DNA of 64,000 nucleotides. Source: Eledone cirrhosa. Its lineage: Eukaryota. The stretch covers positions 68,014,001-68,078,000 of the forward strand of contig OZ024743.1 of the NCBI GenBank assembly GCA_964016885.1, written 5' to 3'. This document shows positions 3,326-53,399 of the stretch, piece by piece. Position 1 is the stretch's first letter; the number at the start of each line of letters is the position of its first letter. The translations under genes and the position numbers were made by a program. The notes beneath the pieces were generated by a model. That model was not told where the DNA came from and ran no database searches. It was given only the letters and a program-made list of their open reading frames with translations.

Positions 3326-4735
3326 TTATTACGATCAGCAGCAATATTCTCCCATGTATCAGCAGAGATGTTAGCGTCTTTCAGAGAGGCTTTCAAGGAA
3401 TCCTTATACCTCTTTTTTGGTTTATGTGGCGGTCGTTTTCCTTTAACCAACTCTCCATAAAAGAGTTGTTTTGGTATTCTAGAATCCTTCACCCTGGCAA
3501 GGTGACCACTCCAACGGAGTCGTTGCTTAAGCACAAGAGCTTCTATACTGTCACACATAGAGCTTTCCAAAATCTCGACAACACTGATGTGGTCCCTCCA
3601 GTGAACGCCATGGATCCGTCTGAGACACATCTGATGGAAACGCTCCAATTGCTTAAGGTGGTGTCGATATGTGACCAAGATCTCGCAGGCATAAAGAAGA
3701 CAAGAGAGCACACATGCCCTATACACCTTTACCTTTGTCCTCCTGCATATGTCTCGCCGACCCCAGAGTCGCCTTTCTAGCTTTCCGAAAGCATCGCTTG
3801 CTTTCCTAATCCTAAGTGAGATTTCATTGTCAAGGTTGCTGTATCGATTGACAGTGCTTCCCAGGTAGACAAACTGATCAACCACTCCAAGTCGTTTGCT
3901 ATACACATAGATGTTTGGTTCAGTGTACTGCTTACCAGGGGCAGGTTGGTACATGACGACCGTTTTCTTAAGACTGACAGTCAGACCTAGGGCAGTGCAA
4001 GCGTCAGAAAATGCATTCAAAATGTGCTGCATATCACTCTCTCTGTGCGCTACAAGATCGCAATCATATGCATACAAGAGGTCTCTTATGATTGATGTAA
4101 ATACTTTTGTCTTCGCAGCAAAGCGCCTGATGTTAAATAAGCTGCCTGAGATTCGATATCGGATGTAAACACCATGCTCGCAATTCCTGAATGCAATGCA
4201 GAAAACCATTGCAAAGTATATGGCAAACAGGGTCGGTGCTGGAATATCCCCCTGTTTCACTCCATTTTTTACTGAGATAGGCTCCGACATGTTACCCCCG
4301 ACATTAACCCAAGCCTTCATGTCGTCATGGAAAGACCTAACTAAAGCAAGGAACTTATCAGGGCAACCAAGTTTCTGGAGAACCTTCCATAATGCATCTC
4401 TGCTAACAGTATCGAAAGCTTTTGTCAGATCGACAAAAACCTGATACAGATCCAAGCCTTGTTCCATGCACTTCTCCTGGAGCTGTCTAGCTGAGAAGAT
4501 CATATCAGTAGTGCCGCGTCCAGCACGAAAACCAGATTGACTTTCAGGAAGAACACAATCTGCAATGTGTGTCAGCAGACGGTCCAGAAGCACCCTACAT
4601 AAAACTTTCCCTACGACAGAAAGCAATGATATACCTCTGTAGTTCCCACAATCGTTCCTGTTACCCTTTCCCTTGTACAAGACCACCATTACTGCATCTC
4701 TCCAGTCCTCAGGTACGGATTCATTAGCCCATATA
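3259..4735 (-). pseudogene. RTE reverse transcriptase (truncated; YADD reads YAYD; frameshift near 3315)
   Basis: CGNYRGISLLSVVGK, LPESQSGFRAGRGTTDMIF, FVDLTKAFDTV, GVKQGDIPAPTLF, LLYAYD, FVYLGS, RLRWSGHLAR. Confidence 0.92.
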
Positions 4736-4825
4736 TATGCATATATATATATATTTATTTTTCTGTATATGTGTGTATCTATGTATGTATATACAAATGT
4801 ATATATGTATATATATATCCGTATA

Positions 4826-4868
<43 letters not shown>

Positions 4869-5627
4869 ATGACAAGGCTGTATTCAAGTTTGCTGGGGTT
4901 TTTCAGCTATTTGCGGGAAGGTGACAGTTGAGTGTAACAGCCTCACCACTTAGCCGGTACATTATTTCATCGTTCTAGGAATGATGAAAGAAAACATTGA
5001 CCTCGGCTGCATTTATGCTAGGAACGAAGAACCTCGTAAGTATACACCGCAAAACAATTTGTCTTGAATATGAAATAAGTTCTATCTAGTTATTACTTTA
5101 GACGTGAATGTCAGAATATGATACTGTGCCACCAAATCATCAGAATAGTTTGAAAGTTAGATTGCTTTGAGGTATACATTACCTTGAATCAACTGAGGCA
5201 GGTTCAAGTGTGTGTACATGTTTTTTTTGTGAATGCATGGAAAGCTAAAACTCTTAGCGTATACCTGATGTAAACTATGAAGTCATTCTCGATAGCATCT
5301 GATGATTGTAGTTTTAAGTTATCCTCCTTATCTAGCCAGCCAGCTAAAACTAACTTGCATAACAGGATTTCACAGAAACGAATGAAATGATCGTATCAGC
5401 TTATCAATTTTAGCTTCTGGCCATACACTTAAAAATGGAAAAATGCTGAATTGTTTGACCTTTCAATGTGTACAAATTCAAATTGACCTCAGTATAGAAT
5501 CGAGGCAATGTATCGATATAGATTTGTTTATCATATAAGCGGTGAGATTACGCGTGTGTATATATACACACACATTCATACATATACATACATACATACA
5601 TGCATACATACATACATACCTACATAC

Positions 5628-5854: not shown

Positions 5855-6220
5855 TAAATACATATATACATTCATACATTCATATATATTACAACATTTG
5901 TTTTTGTAGATGTTTTTAATAGAGGTCATGCGGAAGGAATTCTATTTCTTACAATATTATCTATTCTATTATTGGAAGTTGTGAAAATTTGGATTAACAT
6001 AGAATTCCTGAGAAAGAAAGGAAAGATGAGTTGGAAAAACAAATAATTGTTGAGAGAAAAAGTCTGCACAAGACTAATGTTTACCATAATTTAATAATTC
6101 AATTGACAGGTCTTTGAAAATAACAGACACTCCTCGCCTTACAGCAATATATATATAAAGCAATATATATATATATATATAAAGCAATATATGTATATAT
6201 ATATATATATATGAATAAAG

Positions 6221-6320
<100 letters not shown>

Positions 6321-27773: not shown

Positions 27774-28033
27774 TTTTAAATAAACATGTCTTAACGGTCT
27801 ATTCTCCGATATTTTACTTTCCCACGTGCTTACGCTCTGCTAACTCTCTAGCCCACTAAATATTAACACTTCGAATATTTAATACTGCCGGCACTAGTAT
27901 CGAGCACCTTTGGCATACGCTACTTGGCAAATAACTATATGTATCACCTATCCCTCCTTTTTCTCTCTTTCTCGATACGTGAATACTATATTACCGTGCT
28001 CCTTTTGTAGAGCATCTCACCTTATTTGCCATT

Positions 28034-30770
28034 ATGTTGGAGAACCAACTGTTACCCATGTCTCTCAAGTGTATTCCCTTACCCAGCAGAAAAACCTACC
28101 TTAAACTGCTTATAGACGCTACTAATCCGTTTATACGGAGAGTCAGTTGGAAGGCATACCACCTGGATAAGAACACCCGTAACCTTCCTGAACCCAAAGA
28201 GAAGTATGGTTTCAAAACATACCGAAACCCACCGCACAACACCTTACTGGACTTATTTGAAGAGGACCTGCTGAAAATGATCAAAAACGTTAAGCTCAGA
28301 AAGAAACACCAATGCAGCAATCCATTCTTAACGTCCCTTGATACACTAATAACTAAGATCAAGAATGACCCGCACCTCTTTGTCACCTCCGACAAAACCA
28401 AAAAGCTGTACAAGATGGACGCGAGTGAGTATAAAAAATTAATCTATAAGGAACTACACAAAGACTACAAAAAGACACCCTCTAGTACCCTAAATGACAT
28501 AAATAGAGTAGGGAAGGATATAGTCACCAGCTTAGAAATAGAAAAGTACACTAACCCGTACGTCCCTCTGACGCCTAAATTCTCTCTTAAGGATCACAAA
28601 TATGACTTTAATGAAAGCCCCTCTATTAGACTAATATGCCCCTCTACATCAGATATAGGTAAGATTAGTAAAGTGATCCTCGACAGAGTACTACTCGAGC
28701 TTAATAGAAAGGCTAAGGTCTGCCTCTGGGGCAACACCGACCAGGTCATAAATTGGTTCACCGAGTTGCCGGATAAAGCCACCCTGAAATTCATCCAGTT
28801 TGATATAGATAGCTACTACACCTCTATCTCCCCCATACTCTTAAATAAGGCACTTATCTTAGCTAGATCTAACACTAGCCTCACCAAAAAAGAAATAGAC
28901 ATAATTCTAGCGGCACGTAGAACCATTATCCAGTTCGAAGGCTCCCAATGGACCAGAACCAACCGTCCTGATAACTTCGATGTCACGATGGGGTCCAGCG
29001 ACTCAGCGCAAGCAACTGACCTGGTTGGGATATACCTCCTACATAAGCTTAGGGAAGAAATACCGGCACTACAAGGAGGTGTATATAGGGACGACGCCCT
29101 GTTTACCGTTAGGAACCATAGCCCCCGTAGGATAGAGAACCTTAACAAACATATACACAGGTTCTTTACGTCATACGGCCTATCCGTAACTATGGACCTC
29201 AACCACAGGGTTGTCAACTTCTTGGACGTAACCCTGGAGTTGAGTACGGGCTTATACAAGCCATACCATAAGCCTGGAGAGTGCCTCTCTTATATTAATT
29301 ATGCCTCCAACCACCCTAAGCAGACTCTCAACTCCATAGTCTATAGTATCTCACATAGAATCTCGAGGCTATCCGCCAATGAGGATATCTTCAACCAAGC
29401 GGCTGATTACTACAATAGGGCCCTGATAAGCGCCGGCTTTAACCGAGGAATTTCCTACATCCCTAACGCTAGCTCTAGAAACCACCCCCCTCATAAAACT
29501 AACGTTATAGTAAGCCATACCTATAACCGATCACGCGGCGACCTCGTTAAAGTCGGATATAATAGAATAGATAACCGCACCAAAGATCACGTCCCCGGCG
29601 ACGGTGAATACTGTAGATTACTCAATCTATTCCCCTATTACAAAACCAACAAAGGCGACGGCCTACTACCAACGCCTTCCAACCAACATCTTCGTGTACA
29701 TAAACATGGAAGAGGTAGAAGGAGTGCACCCGAGCATAACGTGAAAGGGGCACCGAACGGGCGACAGCGCATTAACACACATAAGAGCGATCACTTAGAT
29801 GGAACCACCCGTAGCAAAAGTACAAGGACACGTAATCGCCACCGTAACGTCCTATGGTTCCACCCCACCCCCCTACTCTCGAAGTGTGGCCTCCAACATA
29901 CCCCGGATATTCTTCGAAGCCTTAGAGAAGAACTTCCCACCCAACCATAGGTATAGAAAAATTCTTAATAGGAACAATATAAAAATATCCTTCTCTACTA
30001 CTCCTAACCTAGCAGACATCATAGGAACAACGAACCACAGTAAGATCACCAAGACACAGCACCTCGACACAGACGCACCTACACCTGACAATAACTATAT
30101 CGGCCTTAACAACTCCCTGACAGCATCCAATAGTGTTGGCAGCGGCATCCGCAGACGCAACCAGAATGACCGGGAAGTGACTGGGGAACATGCAGAACAT
30201 GACGTGCGGAATAACAATCGCACCATCCCGCGTGCTGTGGGTTGTAATTGTGCTAACGACAGCTGCGGTAGCGTAGGTAACAACGTAGGCAGCAATAATG
30301 ATAGCCTTACCGTGGGAAATAGACGGAACCGCGACAGAAATTGCAACTGCCGCGACAGAGGACGCTTCCCCCTTAGAGGATACTGCTTGACTGATAGGGT
30401 TATATATAGATGCACTATTACTAGCCACAATAGCGTTAAACATTATATAGGGGCCACCTCCGGCCCGTTCAAAATTAGGTTTCGAACACATCTCCACTCT
30501 TTCACAAATAGAAAACTAAGGCACTCCACTTCGCTCGCGGACTACATCACATCACTAAAGGACTTAAACATCAGCTTCTCCACGCACTGGGAGATTGTCG
30601 GCAGGGCTGCACCGTACAACTTCAAGAAGAAATGCGATCTTTGCCCCATGGAGCTCTACCACATCATAACTGCACCCCACGAGCTCATCAACAGCAGAGC
30701 TGAAACAGCGATAAGTTGTACACATCGCTTAAAAATATCCTTCTTTAGGTGGGTTAAGAATGAAGAGTGA
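28034..30770 (+). CDS. Penelope-like RT plus C-terminal GIY-YIG endonuclease, one frameshift near 29860
   Basis: SDKT, IRLICP, QFDIDSYYTSI, VTMGS, YRDD, NFLDVTL, YINYASNHP; then WF/TPPPYS across the shift; PLRGYC..VIY..HYIG..H..SF, CDLC..E, N..CTH. Confidence 0.9.
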
Positions 30771-34800: not shown

Positions 34801-35008
34801 GGTCTGTTCGGACGCATTTTTGCTCGCTCCCAGTAAGTCGTTTTATTTACCTGTTATAATCATTTGTTGTTTAATATTTCTTGCTGTGTAAGGGATATAA
34901 GCCCTTGGACTTTGCCCTGTGAAGAGGAAAGTATAATATGTGGGCCTTTTGGCCCAAATATTTGAACTATATTTGAACATTTTACTTTTAAAAATTAAAA
35001 AAAGAAAC

Positions 35009-36759
35009 ATGGCTGAGCCACGGCCCTCAGCAGTACGTCTGTTGTCGTGTGACAACGGCATAAAAGTCGAGAGGAGGGTTACAGAAATTGATACAACAAA
35101 CACCACCACAAACAACGTGAACAAAGACAACAACACCAACAACAGCGTTTGTAGCAGTAGCAACCATCAACAACAAGACCAGTAGCAGCAGTAGCGGCAG
35201 AAATAATGATGCCGCTGCAAAAGAGGCAACTTCTTTCGCAGGTGTGGCCCGAAATATAGAGACAGTGATAGTCACGAAGAGATGGAAGTCGCGAGAGACA
35301 TGGTGACAAGAAATGACAATAGAGTTACCCTGAAACCTCAACCCTATTTCTTCAAAGTCCAGCAGCTGCGCACGGTGACTTACCGCACCGTAAGCAAAAT
35401 GTCACATCGGGTGGAGAGAGCCACGGAGGCTCAAATTCAAAAGGACTTGGGGTGTGTCTGGGCGCGCAAAACCCACACCACTCGAGGCAAAAAGTACGCC
35501 ATAGTAGACGTATTTTTCGCTAGCCCAAGAGGCTAAGTCTCACTCTTTGGAAACCATAAAGAGTGAGGAGATAGTCTTGGTGCCCTGCTACTGCGGGCAG
35601 AAATTTGTGAGGGTCAAAGTGACCCAGCTAACGACCGACGCTGGCCGCGTCTGTACTTGCTGGAATCAAGGAGAAGACTACCATACTGCAAGTACAGAGA
35701 ATGGGAAGAGACAACTGGTCAGGAATAGGCATGCAAATAGTTATACAAACTTACCAGGACTGCATCGAGACCATCCCAGATATCATAGATATCGAGGAAA
35801 GACTCCAACTCCCTATAAACATGGAAGGAAGGCGCCCAAAGTGCTATCTCTGTGGGCAGAAGGCTTAAGCCAGGACCTTCTTCCGGCAGATAACAGCCAA
35901 GAAGAGCCGCCCCCCTACTTCTGACGCCTGATCCGTAACTACCAAGAGCAGGGCAGGCAACAGAGGCAGAAGACCCTTCCATGGAGAGTAGGAGGGCAAC
36001 GTCCGTGGCACCCATACCAAAGCCAGGGACAACTAAAACAGCGGCAGAAGTGGCGGCAACACCAACAGTTGCAGTAGATACACCGGCGGCAAAATCGCCA
36101 GAGCGGGCTCCACTACCACCACCAACAGCAGTGGAGCTCATACCCCTCCCACACACACGGAATCTGACATGGAGTATGAGGCGGGAGAGAATTGGCAAAC
36201 AGTCTGCCAGAAAAAAACAAAAAAGAAAAAAAACCCTAGCTTCACCTTCCTAAAGCGAAGGCAATGAAAGAGGGGTAAAGGCTGAAAAGAGACTTGCAGC
36301 AACACCACCACCATCACCATCACCACCACAAGCATCACTACTAACAACAACCACATCACCACTAGCATCACCAAAAACACCAACATCGCAAACACAACAA
36401 AGCACACACATCCAAAAGCAACAACAAAAAAACAGCAACAAAACCACCACTCCCCCAAAGAAAGTACACAGCCATAAACATGGCAAATAAAGAACTCTTA
36501 CAACATAAAGCAGCACACAGAATCACAGAAGACAATTGCTATATCCCACCAACACCAAGAACTCTCCCGAAAAATATAAAAAATCATTGAAATTAAAATA
36601 CAACATTACAAAATTTTAAAAGAAAAATCCCCCAACGCAGTTGGAGACTTCAGAGCGTCGGTTACCAAGAGGATATACATCGACATCATCTTGGAAACAA
36701 CCATGACCAGCCAAAGAGACGGTTCTACTGTCCCTTCCCCCCACGATCAAGGTAAGTGA
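35009..36759 (+). pseudogene. Element 1 ORF1 (RRM-like region, CCHC, P/T-rich linker, C-terminal domain), frameshifted
   Basis: MAEPRP..; LRTVTYRTV..RVERATEAQIQKDLGCVWARKTH..KYAIVDVFF; EGRRPKCYLC. Confidence 0.75.
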
Positions 36760-36791
36760 TCCTTTCTCACTTACCCAGTTTCTCATCCATC

Positions 36792-39700
36792 ATGGCCGTA
36801 TCTAGAATAGGCAGTATAAATGTACGTGGCCTGGTGTCATCTTGGAAGCAGGGCCACCTGCTCAACAACCTCAGGTCACTAAACATAGATGAGGTGGCCA
36901 TTAACGAGACCGGAATCTCCGAATCACAAGCCTTAGCACTGATTTTCGGCGGCTACGATGTATACGCATCTCCCAGCCGTCCCGGTTTTGGGGGAGCAGT
37001 TGCTGTGCTTTTTCGGAGAGGTTTGATTTCGCCATACGGGCCATCTTCCTAGAACCAGAAGATAACTCGGCGGTGTTGGACGTGACCGGCAGCGAAGGCA
37101 ATGCTTTCATGCTAATAGCCGTCTACGCCCCAACAGGGGCAGGACGACCAGTTTTCCCCAGACGTCTAGAGACCTTTCTTGGAACGTCCCGCTCTTTGGT
37201 GTTAGTGGGCGACTGGAACGGTATCTTAGATGCACGCTGGGATTATGTGAGGATAGTAGACAGGGCAGGAGGGTGTAAAATCCTCAAAAACCTTCTCAGA
37301 CGTTTTGAACTGTCTGACAGGTATAGACTGGGTTATCTGAATGTGCCAATGTGGACATGTGCAAACCGCATCGGGTCATCGAGTTCGTATTTAGATAGGA
37401 TATTCTGTAAGGAAACAGATGAGGTTAGTGTAGGTGTCCAAAATTTAATGTAGTCGACTACACGGACCACAAATTTGTGATCTGTGAAGTTGACTTAGAT
37501 AGACTCCATAGGCAAGGGCCCATCTACAGGAAGCTGAACGCGTCGTTCCCGACACTCAAAGCATACAGAGATCGGATTAGCGAATTAGTTAAGCGTGCGT
37601 AGACGGGTGCGATCGTCAACAACAGGTGGTGGTTTACCCTGAAAAGGGCTATTAGAGTAAAATCGATAAGGTTTAGCAAAGGAGTAGTGATAGAGGGAAA
37701 TAGAGTAGCGGGAGAGTTAGTTAGAAAGCTAGAAGAGACGTTTAGGACAGGCATCGCAACCGACGTGCTTGCGGTGAGATTGTCACTCGACCAATTCTTC
37801 AATGCAAAGTATGAAGGCTGCGTTGTCAGAGCTAGAGCACGTGTACTAGGACACGAGGTGACGAACGCCGTTCAATGGGCCCGGGTGCTGGAGGCGTGAC
37901 GCGCTAACAAGTCCACAATTCGGTCTTTGCCTGATCAAAACGGGCGCATGTTGCTCGAACCCCAGCAGATGTGGTCGACTTTTCAACAACAGTTTGCTCA
38001 ATTGTTCGGGAGCGGCGTCGGGCCGGATCGGTGTATGGACTTCGGTGCATACCTCGACGGCTCTCGACGACCGCAGCGCAGTGCTGCGAAAAGCCGATAA
38101 CAGTAGTTTTATGAGCCGGGGAACGGTGGCGCCGCTGTGAAAAGACCTGAACAAGTGGGATGTTATAGACAACTTCAGGTCCATAACTCTGCTAAACGCA
38201 GAGTTTAAGATTTTGGCCAAGGCGTTACCAAAGAGATTGGCGCTTGTCGTCTGTGATCTGGTGGGAGAGGCGCATACATGCGCCATTCAGGACAATTTCC
38301 ATCCACGACAACCTCCATCTCATGCGATACATCATAGAGAAGGTGGTTAAGGAACTTGGCCCGAGGGGGGCTATGATCAACTTGGATCAATCTAAAGCAT
38401 TTGATAGGGTCGACCATCGGTACCTCGCGGCGGTCCTCAAGGTGGCCGGTTTAGGCCCGTTTTAGGGGCTGGATCGCTGTGATGCACAGCGACATCTGCT
38501 CGATTGTGAGTGTGCATGGTCACCTGTCGCAGCCTTTTGGCATCATGCGCTCGGTCCGACAGGGTTTCCCACTCTCGTCCCTCATGTACGTACTGGCCCT
38601 CGAGCTGTTACTGCACAAATTGGAGACGATGAGGGCGATCCCATGGGAATTGGGATGCGGGAGATCCGTATCACTTTATGCCGACGACGTCACCGTGGTG
38701 GTCTCGAGCACCAAACATGTCCAGATGCTCGGCACCGCTCTCAAGGAATACGAAGCGGGGACAGGAACAAAGATAAACAAGGAAAAGTCGGTGGGCTTGC
38801 AGCTCGGCATTTGGAGAGGGAAGTCCATGATGTCCGACAGCGTCGTGGAGCGCTGGACGGAAGGACCGGTTAAATTGCTCGGGGTCAGGTTCGGTCCAGA
38901 CCTCCTGATGGAGAAAAGCTGGAGCCAGCTGACGAGCAGGGTGGCCTCTCTCACCCAGAAATGGGCCGAGAGGAGGCTGTCTCTGAAAGTTCCGGCGGAG
39001 GTGGCGAATGCGTACATAGCGTCCGTCATCTGCTACCGCCTGACCGTCGTACCTTGCCCCCGCCCAACTCTGTCCAAAATGGAGCGCCTTTTCTTCCGCT
39101 TTTTGTGGAATGGACATGCTCACATGGTCAGACGATCCGTTTGCTGTCAACACCCGTTACGTGGACGACTAGGCATGCCGTGGCTGATGATGCGCAAACA
39201 TGCGCTGAGGCTGCGACATCTCTGGTGTTTCCTTGACGGTGAACAGGTGTGGTCGCCGTTTGCCAGACGAGCTTTTCCCCTGCTCGTCTCCTCGTTGGAG
39301 CTGCAGTCCTGTATCAGGAAAAGACCGAGGGATAGCACTTGGAAGCTGGAATGTCTCCAAGCGCTCACCACCCTCTACCGGCTGGGCACTAGTATCGATG
39401 GAACTTCCACCTCGGCGTCCTATAGAGGGCTAGTGGAGGGAAAGCGTAACGACGTTCTCGGGGAGACCTTGGGCGTCGAAGACGATCAGCTGTTCGCTCT
39501 CTTCAAGAGAACTTTCAGACCGGGGCCTATGGACAACTTCCATAAATCCCTGGCTTGGCAGTGCTACCGGCGAGCGTTGCCGGTTCGAGATAAGCTCTAC
39601 AGGCACGGAGGTGCTGACAGCCGAGCCTGTCCGAGATGCGCACAGGGTGACGAAACCCTCCTGCATCCACTTATTCAGTGCCCGAGGATTTGGGACTTGT

Positions 39701-39845
39701 GGAGCTATGTCGAACAGCTGCTGTCCCGTGTAGAACGGATCCGGTTATCGACTGAGTCCATTGTGCAGATAGCCCCGCCATCCTTCTTTAAAGAGGAGGA
39801 AGGGCAGGCAGTTTTCATCTGCCATGTGGCCATTGGAAAAGTGAG
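36792..39845 (+). pseudogene. Element 1 ORF2 (APE-RT-zinc knuckle) with stops, frameshifts and internal deletions
   Basis: IGSINVRGL, AVYAP, VGDWN, LDQSKAFDRVDH, SVRQG, YADD, CPRCAQGDETLLHPLIQC; segments missing near 38100 and 39840 relative to elements 2 and 3. Confidence 0.9.
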
Positions 39846-40103
39846 AGAGGGCGCTTGCCCTGGTGGTCAGGGTGGCTGTGATCTTTTGTGTGGTTTTCAC
39901 CACAAGTGACCGTCGGAAGTTTCCCACTTCTTGGGGAAGTTTTGTTGTTTGAATTTTTTTTAATTTCTAGCCCGATTCTGTTATAACCTGTTTACACGAC
40001 CAAAACCCACTTTGTATCGTCCTGTAATGTCTGTGCCGTCTCTAATGTTTTTCTTCGTGTCAGTCCTTGTGGCCAATAAAGAAACCTTTATTATTATTAT
40101 TAT

Positions 40104-40197
40104 GTCGATAAAATAAAATACCAGTAATGTACTGAGTGATTGCTGGCTTTTTGCCAAAAGTAGAAACGATTATTATTATTATTATTATTGTTGTTAT
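40104..40197 (+). mobile_element. SINE-A 3' fragment in the tail of element 1
   Basis: GTCGATAAAATAAAATACCAGTAATGTACTGAG..GCCAAAAGTAGAAACG-(ATT)n. Confidence 0.8.
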
Positions 40198-41035
40198 TAC
40201 TCTTTGAGTCTCAGTCATTGATGTTAGTTAACTGGAAAGTTTGTTAAAATGAATATCAAGCCACTACCTGCAGCCTCAGATATTCAGGACGTATCGGAGG
40301 TTTCTTGCTGTTCCGAGCAAGCATGCCTTTTGAAGCGTTCGAAAAAGTGTGAAGGGGCCAATTTTCTTTAACCATCCCAGGAAACTTTTTGAGATAGTCC
40401 CTAGTGCGCCTATGACAATCGGGATCACTTTGACTTCATGGCAGTTCCACATCCTTTTTACCTCCCACTTTAAGTACTGGTATCGGTTAATTTCCTCCCT
40501 CTCCTTCTCTTGCACTCTCGTGTCGAATGGGCAGGCCACATCCACAATCAGGCACGATCTTTTTTCTTTGTCCACAACCACCAGGTCAGGTCTATTGTGT
40601 TCCAGTTTCTTGTCCGTCTGTATCCTAAAATCCCACAGCACCTTCACCTGATGGTTTTCTATCACCGCCTCTGGCTTATGCTCATACACTTCTCAGAATG
40701 TGGTAAATTGTTTACTTTGCATAGGTGCCAGTGGATCACCCTGCCCATCACATCATGTCTCCAACCCTTATAGTGAGTCTGCGCTAGGTGTTTACACTCG
40801 GATAAAATGTGAGCCACAGTCTCCTCTCTCTCTCCACAGATCCTGCACAGTGGGCTAGCCTGCTCCTTGTAAATATGGTGTTTCAACCACTTCGTTTTGA
40901 GGGCCTGCTCCTGCGCAGCCATTAACATTCCTTATGTAGCCTTTTTAAGGTCTCCTCTTTTCAACCAGTTCCATGTCTGTGGATCTCTAAATTCAGTTTT
41001 CTCAAAGAAGGTACTATGAAGGGATTTTTCCTGAA

Positions 41036-41036
<1 letters not shown>
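40198..41036 (-). mobile_element. 5'-truncated R4/Dong-like non-LTR retrotransposon (restriction-like endonuclease end)
   Basis: AAQEQAL, CRICGEREETVAHILSEC, RHD, NRPDLVVVD..IVDVACP, VIPIVIGALG, QKACLLGTAR; (TAA)n on both sides of its sense strand. Confidence 0.88.
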
Positions 41037-41071
<35 letters not shown>

Positions 41072-41278
41072 GGCGACCTACGTAGTAAATCGTATCATCG
41101 TGAGCTCCGCAAAGGTTTGTTATTTCCGTTTGTTAAAAATTGTCATTTATGGAAAATTTTATTGTTAACTGTTTATAAGCGCACATACATTGTTTTCCGA
41201 AAAGGACACCCAAAAAGATTGGGGCATTGTGCCCAAAATTTAAACTTCTATTATTATCAAAAAATTTCTTTGAAAAAA

Positions 41279-43283
41279 ATGGCTAATTCACCTCTGCACG
41301 AAGCAGCTGAAAGCCTTCCTCACAAATTAACACCTCACACCGACACCACCATTGTAAATGTTACTACGTTTGCCAACACAAAAAAAAAATATAAGCACTA
41401 GTAATATTTTAAATTTGTCTCAGGCAGACATTCATTTCCCGCCATTATCAATGACTGCAGGTGTTAAAGCCTCCACCACCACCACCACCGCGACAACCAC
41501 CACCACCTCCACCACCACCGCGACAACAGAAACAAAAGAAGAACAAAATAAATTAACTCGTGATGTCGAAATGAAATCAAGCAAAATGGACTCTTCCCCA
41601 CCAAAGACGACTGACGTCACCACCACCACAACTGAAACTAAAATTAATATTAACACAAATAACGATAGCATCAACAACAACAATGACATTATAAAACCGA
41701 CCCTCAGTTTCGCCAGAGTAGCAAAACAATTCGAAGCATTTACGGTAACTCAGGAGGATTTAGAAAATGCCAAACAAATGATAAAGAAAGATGGGTACAG
41801 GGTCAGCCTCACCCCCCCCCCCACCTAATAAAATGGAGCATCGGCGCCTATGCACCGTGTCGTATCGAACAATAAATGTAAAATCGCGCCGAGTGGAACG
41901 GGCATCCGAGTCCCAAATCCAAAAAGCTTTAGGACATGTGTGGGCAAGAAAAACCCACATCAGACGTGGGCAAAAGTATGGAACCGTGGACGTGTTCTTT
42001 GAAACACTAGAGGAGGCTAGAGAACACTCCATGGCCCCATTAAAAAGTGACGACTTCACACTCGTCCCAAGCTATTGTGGCCAGAGACTCGTAAAGATCA
42101 GGATGACCCACGTTCCACCGGCCATCGAATTTCCCTGGCTAATAGCGGCCGTCCTCGCCGGCATCGAAGCCAACACGAAAATAATAGCAATAGCAAAAGA
42201 AAAGCAGGAAAACTGATCCGGATCTGGGATGGAGCTCCTGAACCAAGCGGACCAAAAAAGCATTGAGGAGATCCCAGAGGTAATAGACCTCACTGACGGC
42301 AGCCACCTCACGGTAATTGTCGAGGGCAGAAGACCTAGGTGTGTCGTTTGTGGTGAAGAACCCACCTAAGGGCTTTCTGCCCTCAGGCTAAAAGGTTGAG
42401 TCCACCTCTCCTACCCACCCCTGAGACACAACCATCAACACCACCAGTAGCAGAGATGGCAGCAACAAGTGTAGCAGCAACAACAGAAGCAACTATAACA
42501 GCAACAACCCCAGCAACAGTAGCAAAACCAACACCACCACCACCACCACCAGCAAAACCAACACCACCACCACTCAACGCTTCAGAACTAGCACCAGCGC
42601 CTACACCATCCACCACGCCACAACCAAAACTAACGGCTGTGGAGGATTTTCCACTCCCCGGCCTATCACAACTGGAGACAGATTGTGACGACGAGGAGTG
42701 GGAAACGATATCCGGAAAAAAAAAAAGAAACCAAAAAAGAAAAAATTCTCTTCCTTCCCCCTCCAAAAACAAAATACAGAGGGAAACAAATAAATTAAGA
42801 AACAAAAAAGTTAGGACAGATATGCCACCATCCACACCAGCATCACCAACCCCATCAACCCAAACACCAACACAATCACCATCATTAACCCCAACACCAC
42901 CATCACCTACACCACAAAAGTCACCAAAATGCGAAACAGAAACAAACCCACAACAAACGCAAACAAAACAAGACAACCAAAACGATACACACTACACAGC
43001 ATTAAATTTGAACAACAAGCAATTATTACACTACATCCAACACAACACCAGCATCACAGAAAAAGACTACACAACAGCCCCAAATTTCACACCACCTCCA
43101 CACATACAAATCACTCGCATCACACAGAAAACGTACATGACACTAAAACAAAAATTCCCCAAAGACATCGGAGACTTCCGACAAGCACTCTCCAGGAGGA
43201 TTTATGAGGACATCCTTCCTGAGGAGGCCACAAGCAGTGAAAAGGATGGAAAAACCGTCTTTCCCCTACGAGAAGTAAGGTAA
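41279..43283 (+). pseudogene. Element 2 ORF1, several frameshifts, some in homopolymer runs
   Basis: SFARVAK; RVERASESQIQKALGHVWARKTHIRRGQKYGTVDVFF; EGRRPRCVVCGEE..H...C; P/T-rich linker; C-terminal NNKQLLHYI..LKQKFPKDIG. Confidence 0.82.
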
Positions 43284-43317
43284 GTGGTCTTTCCCATCTT
43301 TTCCACTCCTTTTCAAC

Positions 43318-46300
43318 ATGTCCTCACTCAGAATAGGCAGCATAAATGCGCGTGGCTTGGGGTCGTCATGGAAGCAGGGCCACCTGCTCAACGACCTCAG
43401 GTCACTAAACATAGATGCAGTGGCCATCAGCGAGACCAGAATCTCCGAAGCACAGGCTTTCGCACCGATCTTCGGCGGCTACGATGTGTACGCATCTCCC
43501 AGCCGTCCGGGATCGGGGGGAGGAGTTGCTGTGCTTTTTCGGAGAGGTTTGGGTCTTGCCATACGGGCCATCTTCCTGGACCCAGAAGGTAAGTTGGTGG
43601 TGCTGGACGTGACCAGCGGAGACGGCCAAGCTTTCAGGTTAGTGGCCGTCTATGCCCCGACAGGAGCAGAGCGGCCTGATTTCTTCCGGCGTCTGGAGAC
43701 CTTTCTTGGAACGTCCCGCTCTTTAGTGTTAGTGGGCGACTGGAACGGGATCTTAGATGCACGCTGGGATCGTGTGAGATTAGTGGATAGGGAAGGAGGA
43801 TGCAAGAGTCTCACCAACCTGCTCAAACGTTTTGAACTGTCTGACAGGTACCGAATGGATTTCCCGAATGTACCAATGTGGATTTGGACAAATCGCATAG
43901 GGTCATCCAGATCATATCTAGATAGAATATTTTGTAGGGAAATAGATAGGTCTAGCATAGGCTGTCCACAATTCAAGATAGTCAGCTACACGGACCACAA
44001 ATTCGTGATCTGTGTGCTTGATTTAGATAGGCTTCATAGACGAGGACCCGGCTACTGGAAGCTAAACGCGTCCTTACCAGCGCGCAAGGCCTACAGAGAC
44101 CGGATTAGCGAACTAGTTAAGCGGGCATTGACGGGGGCCATCGTCAACAACAAGTGGTGGTTTGCTCTGAAAAGAGCAATTAGAATAGAGTCCATTAGGT
44201 TTAGTAAGACTTTAGCAATAGAGAAAAATAGAGCAGAGGGAGAATTAGTTAGAAAATTAGATGAGGCGCTTAGCAAAGGCATCGCGACCGACATACTTGC
44301 GGCGAAATTGGCCCTTGACCAATTCTTCAATGCAAAGCACGAAGGCTGCGTTGTCAGAGCTAGGGTGCGTGCTCTCAGACACGAGGGGACGAAAGCCGTT
44401 CAATGGGCCCGAGTGGCGGAGGCGCGTCGTGGCAACAAAGCCACGATCCGGTCTTTGGTGGACCACGACGGGAGCATGCTACTCGATCCCGGGCAAATGT
44501 GTGAAGCTTTTCAGGGACACTTCGCTCAACTGTTCGGGGGCAGTGGGGGTCGGATCGAGGGATGGACTTTAGTGTCTACCTCGACGGACTGCCGCGGCTT
44601 TCGGCCACTGAGGCGGAGTGTTGCGAAAAGCCGATAACAACGGCTGAAGTACGGGATGCAATGACTAGTTGCACAAGGGGAAAATCGCCTGGTTTGGATG
44701 GTCTGCCCTATGAACTTTACTTACAAGTGCCAAACTTGTTCGGAGGCCTCTTGGCGGACGTCTACTGCAACTGGCAACAGAACGGGAGAATTCCCAGCTC
44801 TGTGAGCCGAGGAGCGGTGGCGCTGCTGAGAAAGGATCCGTACAAGGGGGATAACATAGATAATTTTAGGCCCATATCTCTGCTAAACACAGAGTTCAAG
44901 ATTTTGGCCAAGGTGCTAGCAAAGAGGTTGGCGCTTGTCGTTGGTGGTCTGGTGGGAGAGGCACAGACATGCGCCATTCCCGACAGATCCATCCACGACA
45001 ACCTCCACCTCATGCGATACATCGTAGAGAGGGTAGCTAGGGAACCTGGCACGGGTGGGTGTTTGATCAATTTAGATCAGTTGAAAGCCTTCGATAGGGT
45101 CGACCATCGTTACCTAGCGGCAGTCCTGAGGGCGGCTGGCTTTGGGCCCGTCTTCAGAGGCTGGATCGCTGCCATGCACAGCGACATCTGCTCTGTAGTG
45201 AGAGTGAACGGTCACCTTTCGGAACCGTTCAACATCATGCGCTCGGTCCGCCAAGGATGTCCCCTCTCGTCCCTATTGTACGTATTGACTCTCGAGCCAT
45301 TACTGCACAAACTGGAGACGTTGAGGGGGGTCCCGCGCGAACTAGGATGCGGAAGATCCGTGTCAGCATATGCCGACGATGTCACCGTAGTGGTGTAGAA
45401 CGCCAAACACATCGAGGCGATCGGCACTACAATAAGAGAATACGAAGCGGTGACAGGAGCAATGATCAACCAGGAAAAGTCAGTGGGCCTGCAGCTCAGC
45501 ACCTGGAGAGGCAGGTCCATGCTGTCCAACAGCGTCGTCGGGCGCTGGACGGACCGGTTAAATTGCTAGGGGTCTGGTTCGGTCCAGACCTCCAGACAGA
45601 CATAAACTGGGACGAGGTGACGAGCAGGGTGGCTTCTCTCACCCAGAAATAGGCCGAGAGGATGCTATCCCTGAAAGGTCGAGCGGAGGTGGCGAATGCG
45701 TACATCGCATCCGTCATCTACTACCGCCTGACCGTCGTACCTTGTCCTAAGCCCCGCCTGACTGGGCTGGAGCGTTTGCTCTTTCGCTTTTTGTGGAAGG
45801 GACGCGCTCCGATGGTCAGGCGGTCCATCTGCTGTAAACACCCGCTACATGGAGGGCTGGGCATGCCGTGGCTGATGATGCGCAGACACGCGCTAAGGCT
45901 ACGACATCTCCACCTCTTCCTCGACGGTGATCAGGTGTGGTCGCCGTTTGCTAGACGCGTTTTTCCCCAGCTCGTCTCCTTGACGGAGCTGCAGTCCTGG
46001 GTCAAGCGAAGACCGAGAGGGAGCGCTTGGAGACTGGAATGTCTTCAGGCGCTCACAGCCCTCGACCAATCGGGCAATGTGATCGGTGGAAACTCCACAT
46101 TGGCGTTCTATAGGGGATTAGTGGAGGGGAAGAGCGACGACGTACTTGGAGAAACTCTAGGCGTCGACGAAAATCAACTAGCTAATCTCTTCGGAAGGAC
46201 TTTCGGGCCGGGGCCTATGGACAACTTCCAGAAATCCCTGGCCTGGCAGTGCTACCGAGGAGCTTTGCCAGTTCGGGATAAACTCTACAGGCATGGAGGT

Positions 46301-46732
46301 GCCGTCAGCCGGGCATGTCCGAGATGCGCGCAGGGCGACGAAACCGTCCTGTACGCACTCGTCCAGTGTCCGAGCATTGCTGACTTGTGGGTTTATGTCG
46401 AACACATGCTGTCACGTGTAGGACGGATCCAGCTATCAGCTGAGTCCATCGTGAGGATTGCCCCGCCCCCTTACTTTAGCCGGGAAGGGCAGGCAGTTTT
46501 TATCTGTCTGGTGGCCATGGCGAAAGAGATAGTATGGTGGACACGTTTGAAAGGGCTGAAGACGAGCACTTACCACTTCGGTGATGCCCTGATTAACTTT
46601 TTCAAATTTCATTTGAAAAGGAAAATCAGGGTAGAGAGGGAAGTGCTCTCTACCCAGCATTTTGTTGAAAGATGGGTGAGAGAAGCAAGTATGGCCCGAA
46701 TGAATGGGCCTTCTCTGAGTATGTGTCTGTAA
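43318..46732 (+). pseudogene. Element 2 ORF2 (APE-RT-CCHC) with 2 frameshifts and 2 premature stops
   Basis: GSINARGL, ISET, VYAP, GDWN, YLDRIF, TDH; KSPGLDGLP, FRPISLLN, KAFDRVDH, SVRQGCPLS, YADD; CPRCAQGDETVLYALVQC. Confidence 0.93.
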
Positions 46733-47191
46733 ATTAAAGGTGGAAAACTGGGAGAGGGCACTTGCCCTGGTGGTCAGGGCCACTGTGGTCTTTTAATGGG
46801 CTTTCTCCACAAATGTCCCTCGGAAGTCTCCCCCCCTATTGTTATTTTATTTCAACCTCTGTTTTTTTTACACGCAGAAATGCCCATTCGTACCGTCCTG
46901 TATTGTCCTGTACTGTCCTTAATGTCTACTTTATGTAAACCCTTGTGGTTAATAAAGAAAACATTATTATTATTATTATTGACGAAAGTGGATGTACGTT
47001 TTTTGAAGCTCCGTGAGTAACAATTTTTTGAGGATTAATTGTGGAGAATTGTTTATTTTTTTGTACCGCTGAAGCATTATAAGACATTCATTTGTATCCT
47101 GTGAAGGAATAACTCATAATATTTGGGCCTTTTGGCCCAAATATTTGAACTTTATTTTGGAAAAATAATAATTTTTTTTACTAAAAAAAAC

Positions 47192-49101
47192 ATGGCGGAG
47201 CCACGCCCCCTAGAGGCGGGTCTGCTGTCGTGCAACGGCGACTTGAGCGTTGAGAGGAGAGGTGGGGCGAGGAGCGCCACCAGCACGAGTGTGAGCAGCG
47301 ACAGTGCCAGCACAAACGGGCCGAGCGGCGCGGAAAGTGGTAACAGCGACAACACCAACACCAACAAGCCGAACAGCGCAGAAGGTGGTAATAGCGAGAG
47401 CACCAACAAAACGAACAGCACAGAGAGTAATAGTAGCGACAGCAGCAGCACCAACAAGGCCAACAGCACAGAGGGTAACCACGACACAGGGGAGAACAAC
47501 AACAGCAATAGCAGCAGCAACACCAACAAGAACAACGACAGTGACAACACCACAAGAACACCTTCGCTGCTTTGGCAGCGGCTAAAAGGAGACCATGCTA
47601 CAGCATCGACTTAACCAACAGAGAGGAAAAGTTGGCCCAGGCCTGGAAAATCATAAATCAAGAGCAGACCTGGGCAAAATTAACTGTCCCGGCAGAAGCC
47701 ATTGAGGCAGTGGAAAAAAGAACGGTGCATTTCAGATGCATCTCAGTAGAGACAAAGAGGGCAGCGATAATCGCCCAAGCTGATATAGAAGCCGCACTGA
47801 AATACATCAGAGAGGACACAGACTTCATAGAGAGGGGCAGGCAATACGGCACCGTTTCGGTGCTGTTCAAGTCTGAAGCCCTCGCTGTGAAGCATTCAAT
47901 GACCCCTTGCAAAACCAGCAAGGTCATAATGTACCCCTCCCACATGGGAAAACGAATAGCACGTGTGCACATTCCCAGGATTCCACCAGGACTTGATATG
48001 TGGTGGCTCCTGGGTTGCGTAATCGTGGAAGGAACGGATACAGTCCCGGTAGAGGCAACGAGAACTGCCAGGGACGACTGGTCCGGGGTTGATCTGGAGA
48101 TACTGCTCCAAATCAGACCCGAAAACGTAAAAGCAATCCCGGACCACATCCGCCTCCAAAACGGGAGGGTGTTGCATATAATGACTGAGGGCAAAAGGCC
48201 GCATTGTTTCCTTTGTGGGGAAACGACACACTTGCGAGCCTTCTTCCCTCAACTGCCGAAAAGCGCAAGGGGTCGAAAGATTCCACTGCTGGCGACGCCG
48301 GGACAAAGACCACCAGCAACACCGTAAACAATGGAACCACCAAAATTGCACACCCAGGGGGGAAACGAGGAAAGCTCTCCCATTCCCCCTCCCCCCCAAA
48401 ATACACACACGAACAATAACATAAACACTCACTCAGACACAAACACGCTCACAGCCACAGACCCCTCATCCTCCAGCAGTGAAGATGAGGGAAAACCAAA
48501 GTCCCCCAAAATACAAAAAACAAAACACAAAAAAAAAAAAGAAATCCACAAAGCACAAACACCCCCACAAAAAAATACACACACCACCCACACAAACATT
48601 TTCCCCACAGCATCACCAACACAACCACCAAAATCCCCCAAACGCAAACAAGCTAAACAGACACAAGAACAAATAGACACACAAACATCAGAAACTACAG
48701 ACACCCCACCCACAACAAACGCAGACACAATAGAAACAACACTAACAAAGCTATCACCACCACAATCACACGAACAAATAAAACCCGAGCAACAAAACAT
48801 TAAAAACTTCGTGCTTGCCAGAAGGGCCAACAAGGAATTGATGGCCCATGTAGCACGAAGCACAAACATCGAAAAAGAGGGGGAAACATTTGAAGCGAGC
48901 ACATTTCGCGTACCAGATAATTTGCTTCTGATGCGAATGTCGCTCGCTTCATACAAAGAAATTCGAAAGAGCTTTCCTCGGAATGTGGGAACCCCGAACG
49001 TAAAACCCACTTCAAGACTATTAAAGGGGTTCCCAAAAGAAACCCCACAAACCATGGAGGTCGAACCACCCGACCTTCACAAGACCCCGGAAGGTAAGTA
49101 A
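47192..49101 (+). pseudogene. Element 3 ORF1 (frameshifts near 47560 and 48250-48330)
   Basis: MAEPRP; N/S-rich; RGRQYGTVSVLF; EGKRPHCFLCGETTHLRAF; C-terminal ANKELMAHV..IRKSFPRNVG. Confidence 0.82.
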
Positions 49102-49130
49102 ACCTTTCCTCTCCCATTCATCCTGCCAGC

Positions 49131-52100
49131 ATGGCCATAAGAGTAGGAAGTTTAAATGTTCGTGGCCTGGGGTCGCCCTGGAAGCAAGGTCACTTGCTCA
49201 ACGACCTCAGGTCACTAGGAATGGATGTAATTGCCATCAGCGAGACCAGAATTTCCGACACACGCGCACTGGCGCCGATTTTCGACGATTATCAGATCTT
49301 TGCATCTGTTAGTCGGCCGGGAATGGGAGGTGGAGTGGCTGTGCTGTTTAGGAAATGTCTGGATCTCGAGGTAAGGTCAATCTTCCGGGATCCTGACGTA
49401 AAGTTGGTGGTCCTGGACGTGAGCAATAGTGAAGGTGGTGCCTTTAGACTGGTGGCCGTCTACGCCCCTACTGGGGCCGGTCGGCCGGACTTCTTTAGGC
49501 GCCTGGAAAACTTTCTGCTTACGTCTCGCCCTTTACTGTTAATAGGGGATTGGAATGGCATCTTAGAAGCACGCTGGGATTGTGTGGGAGTATCTGATAG
49601 GAGCGGGGGTGCAAAAGCCTCAAGTACCTGATCAGCCAGTTTCAACTGTCTGACAGGTACCGACTAGATTTCCCTAATGCGCCAGTATGGACCTGGACCA
49701 ATCGCATAGGGTCATCTAGATCGTACATAGATAGGATTTTCATTAGGAAAAGAGATAGAAATAGTGTAGGATGTTCACATTTTAAAACGGTTGCCTATTC
49801 AGATCACAAGCTTGTGATCTGTATGGTCGACCTAGATAAGACACGTAGGTTAGGACCTAGCTACTGGAAGCTAAACATGTCGTTTCCGGCACGTAAAGCT
49901 TACAGGGACCGGGTCAACAACTTAGTTAAGCAAAAGTTGACAGGGGGAGTTGTCAACAACAGGTGGTGGGGGGCTCTCAAAAGAGAGATTAGAGCAACCT
50001 CGATAGGATTTAGCAAAGAAGTAGCAATAGAGAAAAATAGAAAGGAGGAGGGGCTGATAGCTAAGTTAGACGAGGCTATTTGTAGTGGCATTGCAACAGA
50101 CGTGCTAGCGGCGAGAATGGCACTAGACCATTTCTTCAATGCGAAACACGAAGGTTGCATTGTCAGAGCTAAGGCGCGTGCTCTGAGGAACGAGGGAACC
50201 AAAGCTGCCCGATGGGCTCGCTTTGCAGAGACGCAGCGTGGAAATAAAACCACAATTCGGTCTTTGACGGATCGAGATGGACACGAACTGAGCGATTCCA
50301 AGCAGATGTGTGAGGCCTTTCGCCAGCACTTTGCTCGATTGTTCGGGAGGATGGGTGAGTCGGAGACGGCGGCGGACTTCAGTCCCTACCTCGACGGCTT
50401 GCCACGCCTCTCGACCGCCGACGCTGAGCGCTGCGAAGAGCCGATAACATCAGTCGAAATTCAGGACGCCCTTGTCGGCTGCTCGAGTCGCAAGTCACCC
50501 GGTTTGGATGGTCTGCCCTACGAGCTTTACGTAAATATGCCAGACTTGTTCTCCGATCTCCTCGAAGCGCTCTACTGCAACTGGCAGCAGAACGGGAGCA
50601 TTCCCAGTTCTGTGAGCCGTGGCGTAGTGACGCTGATAAGGAAAGACGAGAACAAGAGGGACACACTAGATCATTTCAGGCCCATAACCCTGCTCAACAC
50701 AGAGTTTAAGATTTTGGCCAAGGTGTTAGCGAAAAGGTTGGCGCTTGTCGTCAAAGATTTGTTTGGGGAGGCGCAAACTTGCGCAATCCCGACCAGGTCC
50801 ATACACGACAACCTCCACCTCATGCGATACATCATAGAGAGGGTTGGGTGCAAACCTAGCTTCGGTGGGGCTCTGATCAATTTAGATCAATCGAAAGCAT
50901 TCGATAGGGTCGACCATCGGTACTTGGAGGCTGTCCTCGAGGCGGCTGGCTTCGGCCCCGTCTTCAGAAGCTGGATCGCTGCAATGTACAGCGGCATCTG
51001 CTCGGTGGTCAAAGTTAATGGCCTCCTCTCGGAACCGTTTCAGATCTCTCGATCGGTCCGTCAAGGGTGCCCTCTCTCCTCCCTTCTGTACGTATTGACT
51101 CTTGAGCCTCTACTGCGGAAGCTGGAGTTGCTGCAGGGCATCCCGCTCGAACCGGGACGTAGAAAGGCTGCGTCCGCTTATGCGGACGACATCACCGTGA
51201 TGGTGTCGGACACCTCGGAAATCGAGGTGATCCGCACCCATTTGGAGGAATATGAAAGGTTGACGGGAGCAAAACTTAACCCGGAAAAGTCGGTGGGCTT
51301 GCAGCTCGGCACCTGGAGAGGCAAGTCCATGCCGTCCAACAGCGTCGTTGGGCGCTGGACAGACGGACCGGTAAAGTTGCTCGGGGTTTGGTTCGGACCA
51401 GACCTCCAGGTGGATAAGAATTGGGACGAGGTGACGAGCAGGATAGCCAACCTCACCCAGAAATGGGCTGAGAGAAAGCTATCACTGAAAGGGCGGGCGG
51501 AGGTGGCGAACGCGTACATCGCGTCCGTCATCTACTACCGCCTGACCGTCGTGCCTTGCCCCCGTCCACGCCTCGCCAATTTGGAACGGCTCCTTTTCAA
51601 ATTTTTGTGGAGGGGACGGGTCCCGTTGGTGAGGCGGTCCATCTGCTGCCAGCACCCTCTTCGTGGAGGGCTGGGCATGCCGTGGCTAATGATGCGCAGA
51701 CATGCGCTGAGGCTGCGACATCTCCAGATATTTTGCCTAAACGGTGAACAGGTGTGGTCGCCGTTTGTTAGACGGGCCTTTCCGCAGCTCATCTCTTTGA
51801 CTGAGCTGCAGTCCTGGGTCAAGAAGAGACCGAGACTGGGCGACTGGCATCTGGAATGTTGCCAGGCGCTCACTGCACTCTGCAAGGTGGGCAATGCGGT
51901 CAGTGGAACTTCCACTCAAGATTTCTATAGAGGATTAGTGGAGGGCAAGTACGATGACGTACTAGGAGAGGCTCTAGGCGTCAACGAAGTAGAACTGACC
52001 AGTATGTTCCGGAGGACTTTCGAACCAGGGACGATGGATAACTTCCAGAAATCCCTCGCTTGGCAGTGCTACCGGGGGGCGCTGCCGGTGCGGGATAAAC

Positions 52101-52549
52101 TCTACAGGCACGGAAGTGCTGTCAGACGAACCTGCCCGAGATGCGCGCAGAGCGACGAAACCGTTCTGCACGCACTCGTCCAGTGTCCGTGCATTGCTGA
52201 CTTGTTGGGTTATGTCGAACAGCTATTGTCGCGTGTAGAACGGATCCGGCTATCGTCCGAGTCCATAGTGAAGATTGACCCGCCGCCTTCTTTTGGTCAG
52301 GAAGGGCAGGCAATTTTCCTCTGCCTGGTGGCAGTAGCGAAAGAGGTTGCATGGTGGACCAGGTTGAAAGGACTGAAGACAGACACTTTTCTCTTCGGCC
52401 AATCCCTCATCAACTTCTTCAAGTTTCACTTGGAAAGGAAGGTGAGGGTGGAGAGAGAAGTGCTGCCCCCCAGTACATTTACTGAAAGGTGGGTGAATGT
52501 AGCGAGAATGGCCCGCGTGAGTGGGCCTACTCTGATCATGCGCCTGTAG
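49131..52549 (+). CDS. Element 3 ORF2 (APE-RT-CCHC), single frameshift in a G-run near 49605-49610
   Basis: GSLNVRGL, ISET, VYAP, GDWN, then YIDRIF, SDH, KSPGLDGLP, FRPITLLN, LDQSKAFDRVDH, QGCPLS, YADD, CPRCAQSDETVLHALVQC; 911 aa open stretch. Confidence 0.92.
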
Positions 52550-53399
52550 GCTGGTGAATTCGAGAAGGAGAGGGGTGCCCTTCCCGGGTGCCCTAGGAGT
52601 GTCGGGTGGCTCAGGACTGGTGGGGTGCTTGAGTCAACCCTGGGTGGTGATCCCTCTTATTGGGGAACTTTCATTGTTGTATTTTTATTGTTATTTTGTT
52701 TTTTGTTATTTATACTTACTCGATCTCTATGTAAACCCCCACTGTCCCTGTCTATTGTGTTGTCCCCTATATATCGGCCCTTGTGGCCAATAAATGAAAT
52801 CATTATTATAATTATTAATATTATTATTATTAGTAGTAGTAGTATCCTTCTCACGATTTGTGTTTAAACGCTACGCATTTAATAAGAAAAGACTAGAAAT
52901 TCCACTAGTTCTATATGCCAGTCATGTGGGACCGAATCAAATGCATTCCTGTTGTCATTTGAAGCATTTGATGTTCTCATTTTCTCCTCATTTTACTTGA
53001 CATTACATGTACATTTTCAGTTCTTCATTTCCATAGTAATTTGGTCAATGGTTTATGAATGGTTGCTAGACAACTGATGAAGTGAGATTGGTTTGACTGG
53101 TTAGATGCGGTTTTTTTTTATTGTTGCTCTCTATTATTCCATGTTGTGGGCTGTTTAATAAAAAAGCGGATCATATCTGTTGCCTTCCAGTGCAGTATGT
53201 CAAAATAAAACTAACAAGAACTGGGTAGTTTCTATGCTAAGCTCTTCCCAGATACACAAGCTGTTTAAATCAAACAATTTACATATGGCAATGTTTATAT
53301 TTATATTTTCATTTATATTGATTTTACATATTTTTCTAATCGATTCCCATCAACTTTATTAAAATAGTTTCAATTAAATTATATATTGTTTGCATTAGA

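Follow-up and report, generated by a model that had tools for sequence, protein, structure and literature searches.

Each of three head-to-tail long interspersed nuclear elements (LINEs) in a 64,000-nt stretch of the Eledone cirrhosa genome (assembly GCA_964016885.1, contig OZ024743.1, positions 68,014,001 to 68,078,000 of the forward strand; hereafter the window) carries a splice donor, AAG|GTAAGT, on the stop codon of its first open reading frame (ORF1). Comparison with copies throughout this genome and with relatives beyond it supports the conclusion that a donor of the U1 type is under selection at this position. The first intron base (G+1) was verified at 36752, 43280 and 49094, where the original prediction had placed it. 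On the plus strand of the 17.9-kb array (34941-52810), AAGGTAAGT occurred four times, whereas 200 dinucleotide shuffles contained it 0.095 times on average and never more than once. The fourth copy, at 43589 within ORF2 of the second element, had been overlooked earlier.

Three donors on three ORF1 stops

All features described for the array lie on the plus strand. Element 1 (34801-40090) is a decayed L1/Tx1-type LINE of a G-type family, with a 5' untranslated region (UTR), ORF1 from 35009 and ORF2 from 36792; the final part of its ORF2 is deleted, and AATAAA is found at 40075. Element 2 (41070-46965) belongs to family 2, with ORF1 from 41279 and an ORF2 (43318-46732) that contains stops and frameshifts. 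Element 3 (46981-52803) is a young member of family 3, with ORF1 from 47192, an ORF2 (49131-52549) containing one shift, and AATAAA at 52789. ORF1 of element 1 crosses donor 1 (36749-36759) in phase 1 and ends as GK* at a TGA (36757-36759), that of element 2 crosses donor 2 (43277-43285) in phase 2 and ends as R* at a TAA (43281-43283), and that of element 3 crosses donor 3 (49091-49101) in phase 1 and ends as GK* at a TAA (49099-49101). Each donor is followed by a pyrimidine-rich spacer (36760-36791, 43286-43317 and 49102-49130) that ends at the ORF2 ATG (36792, 43318 and 49131), 37-40 nt past G+1.

Conservation of the donor within the genome

In the 3.0 Gb of genome searched, an ORF2-start pattern blind to the donor gave 10,735 matches, compared with 22 for a control pattern. 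Among the matches listed, about 95 of 100 ORF2 starts, read by eye, had the donor 37-57 nt upstream of the anchor; in the rest, the site either lay beyond the printed letters (one) or was mutated or deleted (four). Families 2 and B' held at least 4,793 intact donor junctions in the genome, and the ORF1 end of family 3 was present in 340 copies. Family 3 is young: all 150 scored matches were identical over 80 ORF2 residues, and most had a frame of 1150 codons.

We hand-picked 12, and later 16, junction types from the listed ORF2 starts and a further search. They form three lineages, between which ORF2 is 67-75% alike and fourfold-degenerate ORF2 sites are 51-57% alike. Donor positions +1, +2, +5 and +6 were fixed by the rule used to locate the site. 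At the other positions, G-1 and A+3 were found in all 12 types and A-2 in 11, and +4 was either A or G; the flanks of the donor agreed in only 4-10 of the 12. The complement of the 5' end of this genome's own U1 is CAGGTAAGTAT. Of the 249-305 GT sites per copy, the donor matched U1 best in seven of eight intact copies and second best in the eighth, and duplex energies with the genome's own U1 genes ranged from -9.6 to -12.3 kcal/mol over the 16 types. A minor-class intron was rejected, as no matching donor was seen by eye.

Across families, ORF1 crosses the motif in phase 2 (R*), phase 1 (GK*) or phase 0. In family E it reads E|VS or E|VG across the motif and reaches its stop 38 nt further on, the difference between the two being an amino-acid change that preserves the donor. 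The three phases and the read-through in family E indicate that the motif is not a by-product of coding. The predicted persistence of the motif while the stop shifts relative to it was thus borne out over all three phases, with family E lacking a stop within the motif altogether, and the motif was not absent from most related families. The three phases also rule out a conserved ORF1-ORF2 fusion protein. In element 3, joining to the CAG at 49127-49129 would remove an out-of-frame intron of 36 nt, as had been claimed, and most families have no AG before the ORF2 ATG. Fusion through a mini-intron was therefore rejected, and a simple fusion is as unlikely as had been supposed.

A sister group with the same donor

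We scanned GTDB contigs with an 11-sequence ORF2 alignment and obtained 45 loci, 42 of which came from one bacterial bin; a metagenome scan returned 2 unrelated loci only, and two viral scans gave no match. The bacterial bin (L132-L172, L176) includes at least 17 contigs that consist of eukaryotic LINEs in tandem, with a period of 6.4-6.9 kb, suggesting that these contigs are most likely host DNA present as contamination. ORF2 of this sister group is 41% identical to that of the present genome and was placed as its sister with full support in a quick tree. Because the sister group represents one host sample, it counts as one independent point. L175 had no ORF2 start.

The sister ORF1 ends as TAA G|GTAAGT: the TAA ends 1 nt before the cut, on the exon side, and the ORF2 ATG lies 13 nt past the cut, with no pyrimidine spacer between donor and ORF2. 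The donor was present in 77 of 78 ORF1 ends (from overlapping loci); only a decayed copy, from a second bin, lacked it. The U1-type donor is thus conserved, whatever the reading frame, across a split of 41% identity. A second donor, with A or G at +3, stands 14 nt after the sister ORF2 stop in 35 of 35 cases. As a separate observation, the sister 5'UTR contains a donor inside a 13-bp perfect inverted repeat (L137:2348-2660, L158:9164-9480), followed some 200 nt downstream by a strong acceptor, a T-rich CAG, so that the region looks like a 5'UTR intron.

ORF2 as a possible retained intron

The reading that we favour, with about even confidence, is that the motif serves as an alternative donor, with ORF2 as the retained intron, and yields an mRNA for ORF1 only. 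The donor would be used in part of the transcripts and joined to an acceptor predicted at or just after the end of ORF2, and ORF2 would be cut out as a predicted intron of about 3.5 kb. The ORF1-only mRNA would supply excess ORF1 protein, and the unspliced RNA would act as both the ORF2 message and the copying template. When bound to unspliced RNA, U1 may in addition protect that RNA from being cleaved early, as happens in the plant element EVD. Such a scheme would explain why the donor sits on the stop, why the sister stop is on the exon side, why both sister donors are spaced safely with respect to nonsense-mediated decay (by the 50-nt rule), and why acceptors are found at the far end. The sister TAA just before the cut fits what a spliced ORF1 mRNA needs.

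We ranked AG sites as candidate acceptors. Among the 250-269 AG sites of each of the seven lineage-3 families, the TAG stop of ORF2 took rank 1, 1, 4, 2, 1, 2 and 1; its rank was 10-17 in lineage 1 and 19-37 in the G and K types. An AG of rank 1-2 is present in the 3'UTR of families 2, B' and I; ORF2 of families 2 and B' stops at TAA. In the window, the candidate of element 2 is a T tract with CAG at 46875-46877 in the 3'UTR (46855-46877; rank 1-2 of about 260 AG in intact relatives), and that of element 3 is the ORF2 stop TAG followed by G (52527-52549; rank 10 of 260 AG in family 3). A pyrimidine tract with TAG occurs about 240-280 nt into the sister 3'UTR in 42 of 42 cases and ranked 1-4 of 260-275 AG sites (three copies, ad hoc score); an AG about 50 nt after the sister ORF2 stop ranked first in two copies.

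Several results weigh against ORF2 being a retained intron. The acceptor score is ad hoc, and the antisense strand scored as high or higher in the families of this genome, so that the ranks are suggestive only. No acceptor was common to all families; in the G-type families, the best site at or after the ORF2 stop ranked only 19-62, and family 3 has no AG in the T-rich half of its 3'UTR. Unlike in the sister group, the stop in the families of this genome lies on the intron side of the cut, and a spliced ORF1 would therefore carry a different short tail in each family. The distant element L174 (31% identity) has no such donor.

Genomic copies of spliced RNA were also missing. The test was a non-consensus base after the exon end, applied in eight junction searches, each of which detects only joins that differ at the tested base, with a closing filter that drops about a quarter. 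None of the 340 ORF1 ends of family 3 had a non-G at +1, and no spliced copy was found among them. Deviant junctions numbered 3 at +1 and 67 at +5 in families 2 and B', 22 at +5 and 9 at +3 in families C, C' and F, 8 in families 3, D and I, 3 in family E and 0 in family A; none was spliced. They proved to be point changes, small deletions and chance matches, and four breaks near +2 were one microhomology deletion, two local inversions and one short fragment. The 78 sister ORF1 ends likewise included no spliced one. The missing copies argue against frequent germline splicing only insofar as RNA without ORF2 is copied in trans, a process that is inefficient for human L1 (see also PMC5860796); spliced RNA, having no ORF2 in cis, would seldom re-enter the genome. 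We also rejected the idea that the cut-off 3' piece is itself copied, since none of 83 junctions with a non-G at -1 was a 5' end.

We compared the contig sets X1, X2, X4 and X5 with an intact family-3 copy. Among the X4 contigs, which may be RNA although not recorded as such, one bridged the donor unspliced (L031:2517-3092) and another ran across the ORF2 stop (5954-6259); a single joint was listed alone (4312-4558), and it had no GT..AG ends. X4 contig depth was about 190 over the 3' half of ORF1, 7-21 in early ORF2 and 350 at the 3' end. We did not use it as evidence: the depth of contigs gives no ranking of the parts, the high zone lies around the only A tract of the element (1973-2017), so that capture bias would explain it equally well, and a variant at 2516 accounts for the break at 2546.

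A further acceptor-like site lies about 450 nt past the donor, at a rare Leu codon TTA before the GDWN motif in all seven families (window 37199-37213, 43726-43740 and 49536-49550), the only such site in 111 Leu columns. It was rejected as an acceptor because the argument is partly circular, the site is broken in family K, and families 2 and B' have no joined copy.

Possible U1 binding without splicing, or a DNA-level site

The strongest rival, though in our judgement an unlikely one, holds that U1 binds the donor but splicing seldom follows, U1 instead protecting the intronless 6-kb RNA against premature cleavage and polyadenylation or directing its export. It accounts for the missing spliced copies and for conservation that is confined to the U1-pairing positions, and it has precedents (PMC3694450; PMC5580714). 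Two further features may be counted in its favour. One is the second donor after the sister ORF2. The other is a GTRAG word resembling a donor, which six of seven delimited, otherwise unrelated 5'UTRs carry at a distance of 31-36 nt from the 5' end (window 34833, 41100 and 47013; L036, L038 and L043). In the window these are a weaker GTAAGT in element 1 (34830-34838) and a weaker GTGAGT in element 3 (47010-47018), both 33 nt from the element 5' end, and GTGAGC at 41100 in element 2. AATAAA also occurs 313-491 nt upstream of the donor in seven of seven families; however, this is the chance level for an A-rich region (1 seen versus 0.7-1.2 expected; 3 in family E), and we rejected it as a conserved signal. 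ORF2 contains 0-2 poly(A) signals and shares none across families (a signal near +1150 is present in 4/7 and absent in 3/7), and one sister copy has none in either ORF1 or ORF2. The sister acceptor and the placing of both sister donors within 14 nt of a stop are also left unexplained by U1 binding without splicing. The two readings need not be mutually exclusive, judging by EVD, which uses both (PMC5580714). Of the functions originally proposed, the ORF1-only RNA and U1 protection both remain live; their control by a hairpin was not supported.

It is improbable that the motif is a DNA-level site, such as a transcription-factor or promoter word, that merely resembles a donor. This has been argued for a RUNX3 site in human L1 (PMC5860796), and similar words do occur at +31 to +36 of unrelated 5'UTRs. 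However, the variation obeys the donor rule (A or G at +3 and +4, A at -2, G at -1), and we found no peak of 5' ends just upstream (100 listed copies) and none at the donor (83 copies).

Possible reinitiation of ORF2, and family E

Family E, an abundant family, has intact frames (613+12 codons for ORF1, 1141-1142 for ORF2), and yet ATA replaces the ORF2 ATG and is overlapped by the ORF1 TAG (L065, L070; G000:C1 near 11265436 and 19470944). Its ORF2 frame offers no Met until 30 codons beyond the anchor, already within the endonuclease. Given the intact frames, ORF2 of family E is likely to be started without an AUG, in line with reinitiation models for LINEs. The stop-start overlap was seen in family E only; the other junctions have a spacer of 25-45 nt.

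Could the motif and spacer together be a termination-reinitiation signal for ORF2, for example through pairing with the 3' end of 18S rRNA? The frames of family E agree with this, and in five of 16 families the spacer paired better than shuffled sequence with the 3' end of the genome's 18S rRNA. However, the other 11 showed no special pairing, the match had been spotted by eye before testing, the sister group has no spacer, and the exon-side AG and the GT..GT follow U1 rather than 18S. We thus give this explanation little credence, about as little as the DNA-level site; reinitiation may well run alongside the donor without explaining it. Two observations on the rRNA are recorded here. Spacers of lineage 2 and family A pair over 9-12 bp with the 18S 3' end (window 36757-36767 and 43285-43295), and the 18S rRNA genes are about 2,870 nt long (2,868 nt at G000:C25:22125279-22128146, L110), more than 1 kb longer than the Rfam model.

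Proposed hairpins over the donor

The original prediction had each donor lie in a hairpin that gates its use. The three stems can be drawn, but the window junctions folded no better than shuffles (z -1.57, +0.16 and -1.34), and only one of 15 tested junctions reached z < -2. A purine-rich exon end beside a pyrimidine tract is enough for such stems to be drawn. Native halves paired no better than halves swapped between the 16 families (p 0.15; 0.66 within lineage), and the spacer beat shuffled spacers at 0.01 in two of 16 families (D and G). Opening the donor cost less than the U1 duplex energy in all 16 types, and the sister donor, which has no pyrimidine spacer, indicates that a hairpin gate is not needed. 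Together, the fold scores, the swap test and the spacerless sister group gave no conserved or covarying stem over the donor. A hairpin that hides the donor until opened is therefore the least probable of the alternatives, despite the stems drawable in most families, the results for D and G, and the inverted repeat seen by eye around the sister 5'UTR donor, as the stems also differ in register.

Identity and arrangement of the elements

ORF2 encodes an N-terminal APE endonuclease, a reverse transcriptase and a C-terminal zinc domain (zf-RVT; Pfam PF03372, PF00078 and PF13966). ORF1 is 636 aa in an intact copy and has a CCHC knuckle, CX2CX4HX4C. A Pfam search of ORF1 gave no match; its Atlas matches, to zf-CCHC and ZCCHC3-type RNA-binding clusters at 0.90-0.93, are a weak lead only. 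From this anatomy, the elements appear to be of the L1/Tx1 type, the Tx1 label being provisional.

Copies are flanked by ATT or ATCT repeats and stand in head-to-tail arrays. Such arrays, of one family or mixed and joined by ATT or ATCT, were seen at window 34801-52803, G000:C1:423365000-423418000 and C1:26572000-26591000; the joining through these repeats suggests insertion of the elements into one another's tails. The 5'UTR and ORF1 start have been exchanged between families (window 34801-35010 versus L043 and L044; window 41070 versus L036), and element 1 combines a D-type 5' end with a G-type junction. Elsewhere in the window are a further family 2 3' end at its start (1-600), a reverse transcriptase-bearing frame of another LINE on the minus strand (3259-4902), and two long plus-strand frames of 655 and 323 aa without a Pfam match (27983-30770).

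Discussion

The closest parallel that we found is the plant Ty1/Copia element EVD, in which a spliced shGAG RNA serves for structural protein, the unspliced RNA is the genome, and U1 also blocks early termination (PMC5580714). In both systems the structural-protein frame ends at a conserved donor of the U1 type. EVD, however, is a long terminal repeat (LTR) element that has a single gag-pol frame and a short intron, with an early terminator close by (PMC5580714). The present elements are non-LTR, with two ORFs, an APE endonuclease and an AATAAA plus simple-repeat tail; they share no early-termination signal in ORF2, and their predicted intron is about 3.5 kb.

Human L1 is likewise a LINE that keeps a conserved, rarely used donor; this donor lies in the 5'UTR, its retention has been ascribed to the RUNX3 site, splicing is harmful, and spliced copies (SpIREs) amount to about 2% of full-length ones (PMC5860796). 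In contrast, the donor described here is on the ORF1 stop, and the junction searches gave no spliced copy.

In HIV-1, U1 binding at a donor controls polyadenylation of retroelement RNA without splicing. The same is described for the major splice donor of foamy virus (PMC3694450). These viruses have LTR polyadenylation sites and a structure switch, whereas the LINEs have no conserved structure or signal. SART1 and mammalian L1 (PMC5972666) share with our elements a bicistronic LINE RNA and, in family E, the stop-start overlap; the reinitiation mechanism, as set out in the available part of that paper, includes no splice-donor motif, and family E uses ATA. Thirteen recent L1-Tx1 families have been tabulated in octopus, with no mention of splicing in the accessible text (PMC13282606). 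We found no report of a donor on a LINE ORF1 stop in the literature searched, which did not take in subscription journals, Repbase or Dfam notes, or supplements.

The donor is a real, deeply conserved signal; if used in splicing, it would bring a strategy already known elsewhere to a class of element in which it is new. Somewhat more doubtfully than for the splicing itself, we propose that a two-mRNA programme extends over the whole branch and across hosts: ORF2 would be a retained intron running from the donor on the ORF1 stop to an acceptor at or beyond the ORF2 stop, the spliceosome would set the ratio of ORF1 to ORF2 protein, and AUG-free reinitiation on the unspliced RNA would make ORF2. 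Such a programme is not known to have been tied to non-LTR elements before. High ORF1 and low ORF2 output from one LINE RNA is usually credited solely to translation. That a donor has stayed on the ORF1 stop in elements with only 41% ORF2 identity is a pointer to spliceosomal control, which would be convergent with that of plant Ty1/Copia elements. With more than 10,000 such donors in the genome, the signal is also relevant to host gene splicing wherever a copy sits in an intron.

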